Shown here in pieces: positions 18,778 to 64,000 of a DNA stretch of 64,000 bases; position 1 is the stretch's first letter, and every line of letters starts with the position of its first letter. This stretch comes from Escherichia phage vB_EcoM-pEB20: sequence record OP114733. One strand, given 5' to 3'. Under the pieces are notes generated by a model. The model was not told the DNA's origin, did not search any database, and was given only the letters and a program-made list of their open reading frames with translations. The position numbers were made by a program, and so were the translations under genes.

Positions 18778-18832
18778 TGTACAACCAAGGAAGGTTGGAG
18801 TATAATAAATTTTTCAACATGAGGAATATAAA

Positions 18833-19772: not shown

Positions 19773-19802
19773 GTTTACAACCAAGGATGGTTGGAGTATA
19801 AT
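19773..19802 (+). promoter_or_regulatory. early promoter with spacer hairpin CAACCA-AGGA-TGGTTG
   Basis: GTTTAC 19773-19778; 6-bp stem in spacer; TATAAT 19797-19802. Confidence 0.55.
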
Positions 19803-59094: not shown

Positions 59095-60404
59095 CATTTG
59101 ATGATTTGACTGAAGGCCAGAAAAACGCCTTCAACGTTGTTATGAACGCTATTAAAGAAAAGAAACATCATGTAACTATTAACGGTCCCGCTGGTACAGG
59201 TAAAACAACCCTTACTAGATTCATCGTTGAAGCTCTTATTTCTGCCGGAGAATCAGGTATTATTTTAGCAGCACCAACACATGCTGCTAAAAAGGTTCTA
59301 AGCAAACTTGCGGGTCAAGAAGCATCGACTATTCATAGTATTCTTAAAATCAACCCGATAACGTATGAAGAAAACGTATTGTTTGAACAGAAAAAGGTTC
59401 CCGACTTAGCCTTGTGTCGTGTACTGTTATTTGATGAAGCGTCAATGTGCGACCGTTCTCTGTTTAAAATAATGTTAGCTAGTATCCCTAAATGGTGTAC
59501 AGTAATTGGAATCGGCGACCGATGCCAGATTCGTCCGGTAGACCCAGGCGAATCAACTGCGTATCTAAGTCCTTTCTTCACTCACAAAGACTTTGTGCAA
59601 TGCAACCTTACAGAAGTTAAACGTAGCAATGCACCAATTATTGATGTTGCGACTGATATTCGTAATGGCAAATGGATTTACGATAAAGTAGTTGATGGGC
59701 ACGGTGTTCATGGATATACAGACCTTAAATCGTATATGATGAACTATTTTAACGTTGTTAAAACTCCTGAAGACCTTTTCGAAAATCGAATGATGGCATT
59801 CACAAATAAGTCGGTGGACAAGTTAAATTCAATTATTCGCCGAAAACTTCTTGAAACAGAAAAACCATTTATTAAAGACGAAGTCATTGTTCTACAAGAG
59901 CCATTTACTAAGACATATAAGCTAGATGGTAAAAATATGACCGAAATGCTTTTCAATAATGGGCAATTCGTTCGTATTCGAGATGCTGTAGAAACGTCTA
60001 CATTCGTTAAAGCACGTGGTGTTTCGGGCGAATATATGATACGATACTGGAATCTTACAGTAGAAACATATGGGGATGATGAAGAATACATCCGCGAAGA
60101 TATAAAGGTTATTTCTTCTGAAGAAGAGCTTTATAAATTCAATTTGTTTTTGGCTAAGACCGCAGAAACATACAAATTCTGGAATAAAGGTGGTAAAGCT
60201 CCATGGAGTGAATTCTGGGATGCTAAACGTATGTTCACTAAGGTGAAGGCACTACCAGTATCAACCTTCCATAAGGCCCAGGGTATGTCTGTTGACACGG
60301 CCTTTGTTTATACACCGTGTATCCATTATGCCGATTCAGAATTAGCTAAACAGTTATTGTATGTCGGCACAACTCGTGGTCGTTTTGACGTCCATTTTAT
60401 TTGA
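59091..60404 (+). CDS. dda: Dda SF1B DNA helicase
   Basis: Walker A GPAGTGKTT; 437 aa; synteny. Confidence 0.85.
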   Translation: MTFDDLTEGQKNAFNVVMNAIKEKKHHVTINGPAGTGKTTLTRFIVEALISAGESGIILAAPTHAAKKVLSKLAGQEASTIHSILKINPITYEENVLFEQKKVPDLALCRVLLFDEASMCDRSLFKIMLASIPKWCTVIGIGDRCQIRPVDPGESTAYLSPFFTHKDFVQCNLTEVKRSNAPIIDVATDIRNGKWIYDKVVDGHGVHGYTDLKSYMMNYFNVVKTPEDLFENRMMAFTNKSVDKLNSIIRRKLLETEKPFIKDEVIVLQEPFTKTYKLDGKNMTEMLFNNGQFVRIRDAVETSTFVKARGVSGEYMIRYWNLTVETYGDDEEYIREDIKVISSEEELYKFNLFLAKTAETYKFWNKGGKAPWSEFWDAKRMFTKVKALPVSTFHKAQGMSVDTAFVYTPCIHYADSELAKQLLYVGTTRGRFDVHFI

Positions 60405-60413
60405 GAGAAAATT

Positions 60414-61091
60414 ATGAGCACTGATGTTATTATAGATTTTGAAACATTCGGCAATACATCAAAAGCGGCTGTTATTGACCTTGCGGTTATTGCATATAAT
60501 TCCGACCCTGAAGTTGTTGAATCATTTGAAGAACTTGTTCAACGAGGTAAGCGAATTAAATTTAATTTAGCTTCTCAGAAAGGGAAGCGAGTTTTCGCTA
60601 AATCCACTATGAAATGGTGGAAAGAACAATCAGCAGAAGCACGTAAAAACCTGGCTCCGTCTGAAGACGATGTCACTACGCTTGAAGGCATTAAAATCTT
60701 TTTAGATTATTGTCGAGCTAATAAAGTTGACCAATGGAAATCACAGATGTGGTGCCGTGGTATGAGCTTTGACTTCCCGATCTTGGTCGATTTGATTCGT
60801 GACCTCTATCGTGATGAAGGTGTTCTTGAACCAGATATTGATACTGATAAATTAGAACCTGTTAAATTCTGGGCTCAACGTGATATTCGTACGGCAATCG
60901 AAGCTTACTCGTTGACACGAGGATTAAGTATGTGTCCATTACCGATGGGTACGCTAAAAGGATTCGTTGCCCATGATAGTATTCATGATTGTGCTAAAGA
61001 TATTTTGATGTTAAAATATGCTCAGCGTTATGCGCTTGGCCTTGAAGATGTCCCTGAGAATCCTGACCCGTTAAGTGTAAAACAGCGATAA
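60414..61091 (+). CDS. dexA: exonuclease A (DEDD-type)
   Basis: IIDFETFG..AVIDLAVIAY..CRGMSFDFPILVDLIRD resembles T4 DexA as recalled. Confidence 0.85.
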   Translation: MSTDVIIDFETFGNTSKAAVIDLAVIAYNSDPEVVESFEELVQRGKRIKFNLASQKGKRVFAKSTMKWWKEQSAEARKNLAPSEDDVTTLEGIKIFLDYCRANKVDQWKSQMWCRGMSFDFPILVDLIRDLYRDEGVLEPDIDTDKLEPVKFWAQRDIRTAIEAYSLTRGLSMCPLPMGTLKGFVAHDSIHDCAKDILMLKYAQRYALGLEDVPENPDPLSVKQR

Positions 61092-61096
61092 AAACA

Positions 61097-61126
61097 GTTT
61101 ACAACCAAGGATGGTTGGAGTATAAT
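61097..61126 (+). promoter_or_regulatory. early promoter with spacer hairpin CAACCA-AGGA-TGGTTG
   Basis: GTTTAC 61097-61102; stem 61102-61107/61112-61117; TATAAT 61121-61126. Confidence 0.55.
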
Positions 61127-61157
61127 TTTTCTATCTTAACCAAACAGGAAAAACATT

Positions 61158-61652
61158 ATGAATATCAATACCATGGCCACTTACATCCTGAAAGACGAAA
61201 AACAAATCAACTGGTACAGTGCTTCAGTGCGAGCTTATGAAAAGTTTTGTGAAATTTTAGGTGCCACTCAAGGTAATAGTTTCACTATTGTTAACTTCAT
61301 CAAACAAGCTGAAGGCCCTTGGTTATTCTTAGAAATTAAAAATTCATACGGTACAATTTCTACTACCGCCCTTCCAAGCACCGACTTTGAACTGTTGATT
61401 GAAGAAGTAGAACCCGTTAAAGACCTCTGTATTGATATGGATATCGCTTGTATGTACGGTACTCTGATTAAGCCTATTGAGCCTACTGATTTGTTGTGTA
61501 AAGCTGTTTCAATTCGACGTCCGTTCGCAGGTCCAGTGAGTGGATGGGTAACTGATCAGTGGATTGAAGATGGTGTTGAACTTCTGAACGTTGTTCACGC
61601 AGGTGATTTTAGTGTAGTTCCACGTAGTGCTGTAGTTAATATCCTTAATTAA
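61158..61652 (+). CDS. paralog family B member 1 (C-terminal DQW[IV]EDG motif)
   Basis: C-terminus ...GWVTDQWIEDGVELLNVVHAGDFSVV. Confidence 0.55.
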   Translation: MNINTMATYILKDEKQINWYSASVRAYEKFCEILGATQGNSFTIVNFIKQAEGPWLFLEIKNSYGTISTTALPSTDFELLIEEVEPVKDLCIDMDIACMYGTLIKPIEPTDLLCKAVSIRRPFAGPVSGWVTDQWIEDGVELLNVVHAGDFSVVPRSAVVNILN

Positions 61653-61712
61653 TGTTGTACATCCAAGGATGGATGGAGTATAATGAATTCAACTTAAACA
61701 AAGAGAGAAATT

Positions 61713-62177
61713 ATGATTACTATTGGTGAAATTAAACGTGTATCGACAGTGTCTCGTTCTAAAGCTGCAGGAAAGCTGGTTGAAGTAGTAGGACTTCGTA
61801 CTAATGGCATGGGCCGTATTAAAGAAGTTAAAGTTCGAATCATTCCTAGTTCTGGAAAAACTGAAACTCAGTTCGCCTATGTAAGTCCTAAATTCTTGGA
61901 AACTCCTGTGAGCGCTCATTTTGCTTCAAGCGATATCGTTGAGCCTACTACACAGTTCAAATGGGCCTTGTGTAAAGGTGTTGAATTCCAGACTGATAAA
62001 GAATTTGACTTCATCGATGAATACGGTTATCCAAGCAAAACTGATACTATGTGTGGCTTCATTAGTGACCAATGGGTAGAAGATGGTAAAAAGCTATACA
62101 ATATTGTATTCTTAGGTGACTTCCGAGTTGTTGAAGAATCTGAAATCACTCGCTATGTGTCTCCTCGTAAAGCTTAA
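61713..62177 (+). CDS. paralog family B member 2
   Basis: ...GFISDQWVEDGKKLYNIVFLGDFRVV; homologous over full length to next ORF. Confidence 0.6.
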   Translation: MITIGEIKRVSTVSRSKAAGKLVEVVGLRTNGMGRIKEVKVRIIPSSGKTETQFAYVSPKFLETPVSAHFASSDIVEPTTQFKWALCKGVEFQTDKEFDFIDEYGYPSKTDTMCGFISDQWVEDGKKLYNIVFLGDFRVVEESEITRYVSPRKA

Positions 62178-62186
62178 GGAATTATT

Positions 62187-62606
62187 ATGAATATTGCAAA
62201 TCTCTCTATTGGTGATTATGTACATGTATCGGATGCTTCTCGCTCTAAAGTTGCTGGGAAGTTGGTTGAAGTTCTTTCTGTGAGTGATCCGGTTTTTGGA
62301 CGTAACGAAGTTAAAGTTCGTGACGCCGATGGTAACATTGGTTACGTTAAAAGCCAGTTCATTGAGCCAGAAGAACGTACGTTCAAATGGAAACTGTGCA
62401 GGTCTGTTTTAGTTGTAAAAGACCATGAATTTACTATTGCTGCTGCAACTGACGGGTCTCCATGGACAACGAATCAAGTTGCTGGTTTTATTTCGGACCA
62501 ATGGGTAGAAGATGGTGTTAAGCTTTATAACATCGTTTTCGCTGGACAGTTCATGGTAGTTCCTGAGTTCCAAATCAAAAAATATTGTCCAGCATCTTTT
62601 GCATAA
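62187..62606 (+). CDS. paralog family B member 3
   Basis: ...GFISDQWVEDGVKLYNIVFAGQFMVV. Confidence 0.6.
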   Translation: MNIANLSIGDYVHVSDASRSKVAGKLVEVLSVSDPVFGRNEVKVRDADGNIGYVKSQFIEPEERTFKWKLCRSVLVVKDHEFTIAAATDGSPWTTNQVAGFISDQWVEDGVKLYNIVFAGQFMVVPEFQIKKYCPASFA

Positions 62607-62610
62607 AGTT

Positions 62611-62660
62611 GTTTACTTCTCCTCTGGTTTTGATATTATAACCGTATCAACCAGAGGAGA
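62611..62660 (+). promoter_or_regulatory. early promoter in 12-bp perfect inverted repeat (PeSL-like)
   Basis: GTTTAC 62611-62616; arms TCTCCTCTGGTT and AACCAGAGGAGA. Confidence 0.6.
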
Positions 62661-62665
62661 ATAAT

Positions 62666-63190
62666 ATGTTAGTTTACCGCGTAGAACGTAGTTTTTGTAC
62701 TCAACGTGAATCATTACCCGGAATTGCTATCGAAGACGGTAAAGCCGTCAGAATTTGGGAAACCTCTTGGAATAAAGAACCTCGCTCGCCATACGGTTGG
62801 TCGGGCACCGACAACTCTGAAGAAACATGGGAGTTCCTTGATAAGCATGGAATACTCTCAGGTAACTTCTACCATCACGGCGACAACTATAATGTCCCTA
62901 ATCGTCCTACAGTAAATGAAGACAAACTCCTTGAACAAAATATCTTAAGATACTATAGAATTGAGCACACATTTGAATTGAACGAAGATTGGGCTCAAGG
63001 GTTCTATTTTGGATTTGAAAGTGTTGATGCGGTTTATGCATGGTTTGACGACCAGGTGGATGTTGAACTCTTGAAAGCTAAAGGATACTATATCGCGGTC
63101 TATGAAGCACCTGATTTCATCCTCGGAAGTTGTCAATTAATGTTTAGACGTTCATTGGCAGAACAAGTTGATTTTATTTTGCTAAAATGA
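62666..63190 (+). CDS. hypothetical protein
   Basis: ORF track. Confidence 0.55.
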   Translation: MLVYRVERSFCTQRESLPGIAIEDGKAVRIWETSWNKEPRSPYGWSGTDNSEETWEFLDKHGILSGNFYHHGDNYNVPNRPTVNEDKLLEQNILRYYRIEHTFELNEDWAQGFYFGFESVDAVYAWFDDQVDVELLKAKGYYIAVYEAPDFILGSCQLMFRRSLAEQVDFILLK

Positions 63191-63247
63191 TGTACAATAA
63201 CTATAGTCTATGATACTATAAACCTATCAAAACAAGAGGAGAATATT

Positions 63248-63475
63248 ATGAAACGTCAAATCATTAAAAACGTAACTACTGATTCAAACATCGATGAGTT
63301 TGAAGATGTTCTGTTTAATCCTGATTTAGTTGTTGTACAGAAAAGCTGGACTGAATTTTTATGCTACACTGAAGTGGTTTACGTTTACGAAAAACTCGGT
63401 GACGAAATGCCTATCTATGGCATCTTCCGTGAAATCACTGAAAACGGTACAACTTATTGGAAGGAAACTTACTAA
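63248..63475 (+). CDS. hypothetical acidic protein
   Basis: ORF track. Confidence 0.5.
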
Positions 63476-63888
63476 TGGCTAATAAATTCCGCGTTAACTC
63501 ATGGTACCAATTTAAAGATAAACGTGCCCAAGAAGAGTTTATTAAAGACCACACCGATAATGGGATTTATGCACGACGTCTTGGCATGGAACCATTTAAA
63601 GTATTAGATGTTGACCATCTTGGTCGTCCTACTAAAATTGTGACATCTACTGGCATGGTTGGATACGCAACAGGCGGTGATATCCTTGATGAAAACTTTA
63701 TCTGGCTCTCCACGAATGAAGCAGAGTTCTTTGTCGAAGTTGGAAATCCGTATCAAGCGTCCGAAGAGCAAGATTCTGGTGAACTTGACGAATTGTCTGA
63801 ATTTCCGGTGATGACGATTACTATCGAAAATAACGACCAGGCGTGGTCTTTGTATAAAATGTTGAAAGCTCACTTTAAGGAACAATAA
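63475..63888 (+). CDS. hypothetical protein
   Basis: M7 of ORF 63457; TAATG coupling. Confidence 0.5.
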
Positions 63889-64000
63889 TGCCGTTATACG
63901 ACTATAAATGCCAATCTGAAGATTGTGGTCATGAATATGAAAAAATTAAAAGAATTTCTGAACGAGAAAACGATGTTTGCCCTGAATGTCATCGTCTGTC
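63888..64000 (+). CDS. 3'-truncated zinc-ribbon protein (CxxC...CxxC)
   Basis: ATG after AAGGAAC; [18 protein letters not shown]...VCPECHRL; runs off window. Confidence 0.45.
   Translation, partial: MPLYDYKCQSEDCGHEYEKIKRISERENDVCPECHRL

Follow-up and report, generated by a model that had tools for sequence, protein, structure and literature searches.

Bacteriophage T4 MotB is one of the few characterized T4 host-takeover proteins that act on the nucleoid. This abundant early protein (PMC7827196) is toxic to E. coli, shows non-specific binding to DNA with or without modification, co-purifies with H-NS and StpA, and doubles burst size (PMC6070864). Its association with H-NS depends on DNA, and no specific site is known for it; it alters the H-NS footprint, and of the 75 host genes that are upregulated about one third belong to the H-NS regulon (PMC7827196). 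T7 gp5.5, T4 Arn, Ler and VirB share the same proposed outcome, namely that H-NS repression is relieved or altered (PMC7827196), and have no sequence or fold relationship to MotB.

MotB and its relative MotB.1 have a conserved C-terminal domain in common and differ in their N-terminal domains (Patterson-West et al. 2021, PMC7827196 section 3.2), and one of the two genes has been suggested to derive from the other by duplication (PMC7827196 section 3.2). An HHpred-based prediction of 2021 assigned the C-terminal domain to the cold-shock-type OB-fold and held that either domain may bind DNA (PMC7827196 section 3.1). [quoted passage not shown] 2025, PMC12152347), while T4 motB.1 deletion and amber mutants had no phenotype and MotB.1 had no effect on an RNA reporter (PMC12152347). 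Phage RB69 was described as having two motB copies, one motB.1 and a 29-aa peptide with the C-terminal core (PMC7827196 section 3.2); the extra motB copy has been annotated since 2003 (RB69ORF010c). In T4-type phages, repeated early promoters combined with a stem-loop (PeSLs), which are mobile regulatory cassettes, are found at the borders of variable ORFs, and those of the PST/T4 pair have the promoter consensus TTTACW-N17-TAYWAT (PMC4122927).

Here we describe a motB.1, motB and second motB copy trio in a T-even-like phage. Earlier publications cover the family, its shared domain and the extra copy, and the trio is a rediscovery of a known family; the significance of the work is small beyond tidying, and what we add is incremental.

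The three-gene array and its genomic setting

Three plus-strand ORFs of 164, 154 and 139 aa (members 1, 2 and 3, in that order) fill positions 61158-62606 of the window, which is the whole 64-kb stretch of DNA analyzed; 61158 is the ATG of member 1 and 62606 the end of the stop codon of member 3. The array and its predicted features are as follows.

61098..61126, plus strand: early-promoter-like cassette upstream of motB.1 (GTTTACA, 17-nt spacer, TATAAT; promoter scan 11/12)
61158..61652, plus strand: member 1, motB.1; 164 aa, pI 4.5; predicted LSm-like N-terminal beta domain (aa 1-85), linker, shared C-terminal domain
61431..61475, plus strand: conserved linker peptide IDMDIACMYGTLIKP, motB.1 aa 92-106 (alignment A3)
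61479..61649, plus strand: shared C-terminal domain of member 1, aa 108-164; core motif from 61554; BLASTP and hhalign matches to members 2 and 3
61656..61684, plus strand: second early-promoter-like cassette, upstream of motB (TGTACA, 17-nt spacer, TATAAT; promoter scan 10/12)
61713..62177, plus strand: member 2, motB; 154 aa, pI 7.7; core motif at 62067
62187..62606, plus strand: member 3, second motB copy, RB69ORF010c orthologue; 139 aa, pI 5.7; core motif at 62496
63475-63888: goF, about 1.8 kb downstream of motB.1

Over the surrounding 5 kb, DNA identity is 97% to Mosigvirus (RB69-like) coliphages such as MM02, JK36, APCEc01 and moha, and to judge from its sequence the window is that of an RB69-like T-even coliphage (Mosigvirus). 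The gene order dda, dexA, motB.1, motB, ORF010c, motB.2, cef, goF is identical in RB69, whose record has motB.1, motB, RB69ORF010c ('similar to motB') and motB.2 at the same positions. The trio thus lies in the early region, downstream of the genes for the Dda helicase and DexA exonuclease and upstream of those for Cef and GoF, with dexA on one side and motB.2/cef on the other. T4, RB3 and JS98 have the same neighborhood but with motB.2 ahead of motB.1: the order is motB.2, motB.1, motB in T4 and JS98 and motB.2, motB.1, motB, ORF010c-like in RB3 (Tequatrovirus). In T4 motB.2 therefore stands between dexA and motB.1, whereas in the window motB.1 directly follows dexA.

All three proteins passed the curated gathering threshold (25 bits) of Pfam PF17613 (motB, modifier of transcription), with 36.2 bits for member 1, where the match is limited to residues 84-159, 136.2 bits for member 2 (E=1.2e-39, full length) and 86.6 bits for member 3 (E=2.2e-24, full length). 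The PHROG 'MotB-like transcriptional regulator' was also matched: members 2 and 3 hit phrog_1671 (E=1.1e-64 and 2.3e-52), and member 1 hit phrog_2333 (PHROG 2333, MotB.1 family) over its full length (E=2.8e-82). The identity of the genes rests on these Pfam and PHROG matches together with the 97% DNA identity and the synteny with RB69. Member 2 has 89% identity to RB69 MotB and about 48-50% to T4 MotB; member 3 is 91% identical to RB69ORF010c (GenBank AY303349, 2003), which has the same length of 139 aa and the same position and shows no substantive difference; member 1 is about 48% identical to T4 MotB.1 along its full length (47.6% by tblastn to a T4 record). Any two of member 2, member 3 and T4 MotB are about 50% identical.

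The three proteins and MotB.2 had no match in NCBIfam or PADLOC scans. An Rfam scan of 60400-64000 returned sub-threshold matches only, Y_RNA at 27.3 bits (threshold 38), which falls within the coding part of motB.1, and Clostridium-PBP at 30.7 bits (threshold 94.4), both of which were taken as chance. Minus-strand ORFs over the genes (e.g. 61689-61919) were without support and were disregarded. The original prediction, made from the letters and ORFs of the window, had not recognized the genes as the named, published MotB family.

That prediction had described a tandem paralog array in which members 2 and 3 are homologous from end to end and member 1 shares the C-terminal module only, and formal pairwise alignment bears out each of these points. 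By BLASTP, members 2 and 3 are 44% identical across 148 columns (E=1e-31), which amounts to full-length homology; member 1 aligns with member 2 only through residues 129-164 (against 115-150; 44% identity, E=2e-10) and with member 3 over 29 residues only (62% identity, E=1e-11), so that sharing is confined to its last 30-60 residues. At the profile level, hhalign related the MotB-type and MotB.1-type C-terminal domains (probability 99.0%, E=2.5e-18, 38 columns) and detected no relationship between the two types of N-terminal domain (probability 2%). Internal duplication, whether between N- and C-terminal domains or between N-terminal domains, was rejected at hhalign probabilities of at most 14%. 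When all six frames of the window were searched, the motif DQW[VI]EDG...L[YL]N[IV]V occurred exactly three times, at the positions listed above, in tandem and in one common reading frame, and an HMM of the module run on the ORFs of the window likewise matched exactly three (E=1e-42, 1e-42 and 5e-26; next E=1.5). The short form, DQW[VI]EDG, is indeed present in all three genes, but the longer pattern that had been attributed to all of them, GF[IV][ST]DQWVEDGxKLYNIVFxGxFxVV, holds for members 2 and 3 and not for member 1, which reads GWVTDQWIEDGVELLNVVHAGDFSVV at that position.

Two promoter-like cassettes flank member 1. The one at 61098-61126 fits the TTTACW-N17-TAYWAT early-promoter consensus reported for PeSLs (PMC4122927) and has a short stem-loop, CAACCA/UGGUUG, between its hexamers. 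A 66-nt direct repeat (D3) relates 61100-61165 to 61658-61723 at 74% identity, and the window has 4 copies of a 22-nt core, CCAAGGATGGWTGGAGTATAAT, where 0 are expected, with an exact match in the 61656-61684 cassette. Neither stem-loop is strong (-6.9 and -9.4 kcal/mol; z -1.6 and -2.5). Because only 9 nt separate the stop codon of member 2 from the start of member 3, and an AAGGA overlaps the motB stop, motB and member 3 are likely co-transcribed and translationally coupled. On read-through transcripts, a hairpin at 62617-62661 may mask the ribosome-binding site of motB.2.

Domain architecture, charge and predicted fold

Members 2 and 3 both carry the signature of MotB proper ('Category 1'), SRSKxAG...EVKVR in the N-terminal and FKW...DQWVEDGxKLYN in the C-terminal domain. 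In member 2 a basic, KOW-like N-terminal domain (aa 1-63) is joined by a disordered linker (aa 64-80) to the shared C-terminal domain (aa 81-154). Member 3 has the same two-domain plan without the IIPSSG insert (6 residues) and without the inter-domain linker (alignment A2, 40 sequences). Both keep the invariant columns G5, S11, S14, R15, S16, A19, G20, V23, E24, V39, K40 and V41 and, further on, Y56, V57, F61, F82, K83, D119-N130 and others. T4 MotB (PF17613, 'Category 1') has in common with them the two-domain plan and the early position upstream of cef; identity to it is only about 48-50% for member 2 and 40-50% for member 3.

Member 1 has the make-up of MotB.1 ('Category 2'): a predicted LSm-like, five-stranded N-terminal domain followed by a C-terminal PTDLLCKAVxIRRPF...GWVTDQWIEDGVELLNVVH. 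It keeps all invariant C-terminal columns (P109-L113, F123, G129-V131, D133-W135, E137, G139, E141-H147 and R156). Assignment to MotB proper was rejected, as member 1 is without the SRSKxAG-type N-terminal domain. Its LSm-like N-terminal and ELLNVVH-type C-terminal domains are common to T4 MotB.1 (Y00E, UniProt P39415, 'Category 2'), to which its model was matched by Foldseek (E=2.3e-9), but member 1 has an extra 20-residue linker with the IDMDIACMYGTLIKP peptide that T4 MotB.1 does not have. In other MotB.1-type proteins this peptide either separates the two domains or precedes the N-terminal one; in member 1 it falls in or beside a low-confidence stretch of the model (residues 89-97, pLDDT <50). 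The N-terminal domain of member 1 would belong with the GoF/Frd.2/MotB.1 LSm-like family (PMC12152347), a likeness that is structural only; GoF and Frd.2 are without a MotB-type C-terminal domain. Against viral predicted structures, Foldseek found nothing significant for the member 1 model beyond MotB.1/MotB relatives.

The members differ in the distribution of charge. The N-terminal domain has a pI of 10.7 in member 2 and 9.75 in T4 MotB and is not basic in member 3 (5.7), while the C-terminal domains of members 1, 2 and 3 have pIs of 5.0, 4.7 and 8.0, respectively. As a whole protein, T4 MotB (pI 9.2) is more basic than member 2, and member 3 is acidic.

The shared C-terminal domain comprises ~55-75 residues around the core G[FW][IV][ST]DQW[VI]EDGx[KE]L[YL]N[IV]V. 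AF2 models of members 1 and 2 (mean pLDDT 81.5 and 81.9) each contain two beta domains and a low-confidence linker, which in member 2 covers residues 66-79 (<50). In the member 1 model the N-terminal domain has strands at 8-11, 42-49, 55-61, 67-73 and 80-82 and a helix at 26-37, and the C-terminal domain has predicted strands at 116-119, 127-137, 140-147 and 150-155, a 3-10 turn at 156-158 and a last strand at 159-163. In both models the C-terminal domain has five strands; strands 3 and 4 are connected by a tight turn, and a 3-10 turn separates strand 4 from strand 5. In a cold-shock-type OB-fold an alpha-helix sits between strands 3 and 4 of a five-stranded barrel; the C-terminal domain has no such helix in the models of members 1 and 2. 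Given this absence and the 3-10 turn, the model of the shared domain is that of an SH3/Tudor-like barrel and not of an OB-fold, a revision that is new here and incremental. Its structural neighbors are Tudor, PWWP, KOW and chromo domains; these SH3-like small beta-barrels are only 10-20% identical to it in sequence, a likeness at the level of fold, and no aromatic cage or methyl-lysine function is implied by it. PDB sequences searched with profiles built from the MotB and MotB.1 alignments gave no significant match (best E=0.41 and 0.53), so sequence search leads to no solved structure.

Distribution, selection and exchange of the genes

Copy number was compared by tblastn of each member against 50,697 phage records. 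Member 2 matched 760 records at 967 places, member 3 matched 768 records at 975 places and member 1 matched 739 records at 768 places. About 207 of the about 768 records, from two genera, have a gene with at least 80% identity to member 3; in the other records the member 3 query matches the single motB alone, at <60% identity. Since 207/768 records have a member-3-like gene, about a quarter of T-even-like genomes carry three genes with the C-terminal domain and most have two. NHEP36 has motB and an ORF010c-like gene without motB.1. Member 1 was matched over most of its length in 308 records; elsewhere, among the matches listed, only residues 103-164 aligned, which points to other N-terminal domains carried on the same predicted C-terminal domain. 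The motB.1/motB pair occurs in T4, JS98, RB3 and RB69 and is ancestral to the T-even-like group.

With a profile of the C-terminal domain, 26 clusters at 50% identity were retrieved among 1.84 billion proteins (representatives), all of them small proteins with a KOW-like or LSm-like N-terminus; no members beyond small phage-type proteins were found among these representatives. A lineage-specific expansion had been proposed for the array, and the family is in fact confined to T-even-like phages; the duplications, however, are old and widely shared and not specific to this genome.

Against orthologues, dN/dS ranged from 0.10 to 0.35 across the members, so that all three are kept by selection; for member 3 it was 0.10-0.20 (versus RB69, RB3 and NHEP36). 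Between members 2 and 3 synonymous sites are saturated (dS about 1.5), also within the 26-codon core, where dN/dS is 0.06; the similarity of the motif has therefore been kept by selection and does not reflect recent gene conversion. To date the duplication, neighbor-joining trees were built from full-length MotB and from the C-terminal domain, the latter with MotB.1 as root. The member-3 lineage was monophyletic with 87-100% bootstrap; as to its place among the RB69-, T4- and JS98-type MotB lineages, a sister grouping of members 2 and 3 received no more than 40-47% support. The motB/ORF010c duplication is old, and purifying selection acts on the extra copy, whose N-terminal domain is no longer basic; this, too, is a new if incremental result.

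Phage RB3 provides a case of exchange. Its flanks are T4-like (dexA 99%, cef 97% and motB.2 91% identity), but its motB is 48% identical to T4 motB and 84% to that of the window, and its ORF010c-like gene is 89% identical to member 3. Between RB3 and the window, dS is 0.5-0.6 for motB/ORF010c versus 2.1 for dexA. Because these two genes are window-like while the flanks are T4-like, the sequences indicate that motB and the second copy probably moved between phage genera as a two-gene cassette, which is likewise new here and incremental. Within Mosigvirus, comparison of the window with RB69 gave a dS of 0.30-0.36 for members 2 and 3 and of 0.06 for dexA, with dN/dS of 0.16-0.19 and 0.03, respectively. 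The only motB on one metagenomic contig is member-2-like in its N-terminal half and member-3-like in its C-terminal half, a chimera that is the expected product of recombination between tandem copies.

Proposed function and competing explanations

The best explanation, to which we give a probability of roughly 80%, is that the locus holds an RB69-like trio of early, non-structural genes in a plastic early region, motB.1, motB and a diverged second motB copy of the RB69ORF010c type, with a mechanism like that of T4 MotB; homology, architecture, copy number, selection and genomic context are observed directly, and every biochemical activity in this proposal we infer by homology. All three products are small two-domain beta proteins with a variable N-terminal domain, a flexible linker and one shared C-terminal barrel. 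By homology to T4 MotB, member 2 would be made within minutes of infection, would coat DNA without sequence preference, most likely via its strongly basic KOW-like N-terminal domain, and would change the seating of H-NS and StpA on DNA, so that H-NS-silenced genes would be de-repressed and phage yield modestly raised. DNA binding is placed mainly in the N-terminal domain of MotB because the positive charge sits there, and because the C-terminal domain of each protein is acidic to neutral the shared barrel may be a common targeting or self-association module and not the main DNA-binding surface. Member 3 has kept the fold without the basic charge or the linker and is probably a partner or variant of MotB that has been sub- or neo-functionalized, and member 1 would couple the same barrel to an LSm-like domain. 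Several points weigh against this explanation: the moderate identity of member 2 to T4 MotB; its lower pI (7.7 versus 9.2), with which DNA binding could be weaker; the published OB-fold assignment of the C-terminal domain, under which either domain may bind DNA (PMC7827196 section 3.1), together with the frequent nucleic-acid binding of SH3/Tudor/PWWP/KOW-like barrels, which make a C-terminal contribution to DNA binding possible; and, for member 1, the T4 motB.1 mutants without phenotype and the lack of a reporter effect (PMC12152347). The suggestion that these are host-interaction genes is borne out broadly, since T4 MotB is an early host-takeover protein that binds DNA, associates with H-NS/StpA and de-represses silenced host genes (PMC6070864, PMC7827196), and as a description of the trio it is only loosely right.

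A tentative alternative, on balance doubtful, is that the shared barrel itself binds nucleic acid in the manner of OB/cold-shock domains, that all three proteins bind DNA or RNA, and that the N-terminal domains modulate specificity. It draws on the HHpred-based assignment, which allowed DNA binding for either domain (PMC7827196 section 3.1), on the fact that this is the most conserved part of the family (D119, Q120, W121, E123, G125, K127, L128, Y129 and N130 are invariant in A2), on the many DNA- or RNA-binding domains among its SH3/Tudor/PWWP/KOW/chromo-like neighbors, which make C-terminal DNA binding possible, and on the hint of RNA in the LSm-like N-terminal domain of MotB.1 (PMC12152347). 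The acidic to about neutral C-terminal domains, the acidity of DQWVEDG itself, the N-terminal location of the positive charge in MotB, the SH3-like predicted topology and the inactivity of MotB.1 on the RNA reporter (PMC12152347) all argue against it. It is unlikely that motB and ORF010c form an arms-race cassette whose divergence and exchange track host silencers (H-NS, StpA, Hha-like variants) or a defense system, with member 3 as a decoy or specialized antagonist. The synonymous divergence of members 2 and 3 within Mosigvirus, 5-6x that of flanking dexA, their higher dN/dS, the window-like pair between the T4-like flanks of RB3 and the chimeric single gene are what such a history could leave behind, but dN/dS is well below 1 with no whole-gene sign of positive selection, PADLOC gave zero matches, and mosaic exchange is normal for every gene of T4-type hyperplastic regions (PMC2839356, PMC4122927).

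Rather less probable still, taken as a joint proposal, is that the shared domain is no DNA-binding OB-fold but a module of SH3/Tudor-like fold for targeting or (hetero)oligomerization, through which unlike N-terminal effectors would reach one common partner (in MotB a basic DNA binder of KOW-like type, in the second copy a KOW-like domain of neutral charge, and in MotB.1 an LSm-like domain), that the trio acts together, for instance as mixed oligomers on H-NS-DNA filaments, and that motB and ORF010c are a co-adapted cassette swapped between genera. That member 3 is a redundant, decaying motB duplicate without a function of its own is very improbable and already largely refuted: it is shorter, without linker and insert, and has lost its basic charge, but it persists as an intact 139-aa ORF at at least 80% identity in about 207 phage records, with low dN/dS, with the invariant family residues retained and with a ribosome-binding site directly after the motB stop. 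The tandem, same-frame arrangement of the motif copies might suggest recent gene conversion, an assembly artefact or chance, a notion already refuted by the saturated synonymous sites, the DNA identity of only 60-71% in the 68-nt core, the presence of the same three genes in hundreds of independent genomes and E-values far below chance.

Under the preferred MotB-like explanation, an acidic SH3-like module, DNA-binding charge in the N-terminal domain and a second, charge-neutral copy that travels with motB in about a quarter of sequenced T-even-like phages could guide domain-level H-NS experiments. A further point concerns the 29-aa RB69 peptide: RB69 motB.1 has two extra T residues, which may be sequencing errors or mark a real pseudogene, and RB69 'ORF012c' is a frameshift fragment of motB.1, a point that is new here, and as such it should leave family classifications.

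motB and its second copy as a pair

The motB gene and the adjacent second copy, of the RB69ORF010c type, behave as a two-gene cassette that has passed between genera. The loci compared were the following:

Window 61713-62606, motB and the second copy
Phage RB3, a Tequatrovirus (L004), 2018-2920
Phage T4 (L002)

In RB3, the flanking genes are T4-like (99% for dexA and 97% for cef), and it is motB and ORF010c that are RB69-like, with 84% and 89% identity, respectively, to the window. Synonymous divergence between RB3 and the window (dS) is 0.5-0.6 for motB and ORF010c versus 2.1 for dexA. Inside Mosigvirus, the synonymous-site divergence of motB and the second copy is 5-6 times that of dexA.

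A single motB gene was found in one metagenomic contig:

Logan contig ERR12931180_13207 (L007), 1373-1894, motB encoding protein P0036

This protein combines an N-terminal half of the motB type with a C-terminal domain of the second-copy type, and its gene lies between motB.1 on one side and cef on the other, which looks like a tandem pair collapsed through recombination. Alternatively, P0036 could be an artefact of chimeric assembly, the contig having been obtained by short-read assembly.

Module rearrangements and the linker peptide of MotB.1

The 43-aa protein P0259 (MKIYRVESSFSILDYEDGVELLNVVHAGDFSVVPRSAVVAILN), retrieved by the C-terminal profile search, consists of the MotB.2 N-terminus fused to the final 28 residues of MotB.1, which suggests that some T4-type phage has lost, by deletion, the junction between motB.2 and motB.1. 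Four MotB.1-type proteins of 245-251 aa (P0150, P0151, P0176 and P0246) carry two tandem LSm-like N-terminal domains followed by the shared C-terminal domain, so that the N-terminal module has itself been duplicated in some phages. Member 1 of the array, MotB.1, additionally contains a conserved linker:

Window 61431-61475, linker peptide IDMDIACMYGTLIKP, aa 92-106 of MotB.1

Versions of this peptide, with the approximate consensus xD[MFT]D[IV]xxMYxTxxxP, are present in many MotB.1-type proteins and in distant family members with KOW-like N-termini; T4 MotB.1 lacks it. The peptide can lie between the domains, precede the N-terminal one or occur two times in the same protein. Its behaviour is that of a short linear motif.

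The motB.1 reading frame in RB69

When RB69 (AY303349 2447-2943) was aligned with the window (61158-61652) and phage moha, two single-T insertions were detected in the RB69 record, one at CCGTTTCG (CCGTTCG in the window and moha) and the other at GGTTGTT (GGTGTT in both). Together they break RB69 motB.1 into a 132-aa ORF and the 29-aa RB69ORF012c, a peptide that has been classed as 'Category 3' (PMC7827196). It follows that the 29-aa peptide is a frameshift fragment of motB.1 and no separate member of the family; the frameshift reflects a sequencing error, or else motB.1 is a pseudogene in RB69. Within the motB.1 coding sequence of the window, a Y_RNA match at 61307-61400 (27.3 bits, E=0.015) fell below the Rfam gathering score of 38 and was rejected as a chance hit.

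Promoter-like repeats and the hairpin preceding motB.2

A 22-nt promoter core (CCAAGGATGGWTGGAGTATAAT) occurs four times in the window, against zero copies expected by chance:

18785-18806, promoter core
19781-19802, promoter core
61105-61126, promoter core
61663-61684, promoter core

Two copies flank motB.1 and two lie near 19 kb; the core is possibly a mobile promoter cassette of the PeSL type. A further element separates the second motB copy from motB.2:

62617-62661, strong hairpin (-24.2 kcal/mol, z=-6.2)

A promoter-like site, TTTACT-16-TATTAT, has its -10 element in the hairpin loop, and the 3' arm includes GAGGAG, the Shine-Dalgarno sequence of motB.2. In this arrangement, of a kind known from other T4 genes, the motB.2 ribosome-binding site would be masked in transcripts reading through from upstream and unmasked in those initiated at the proximal promoter.
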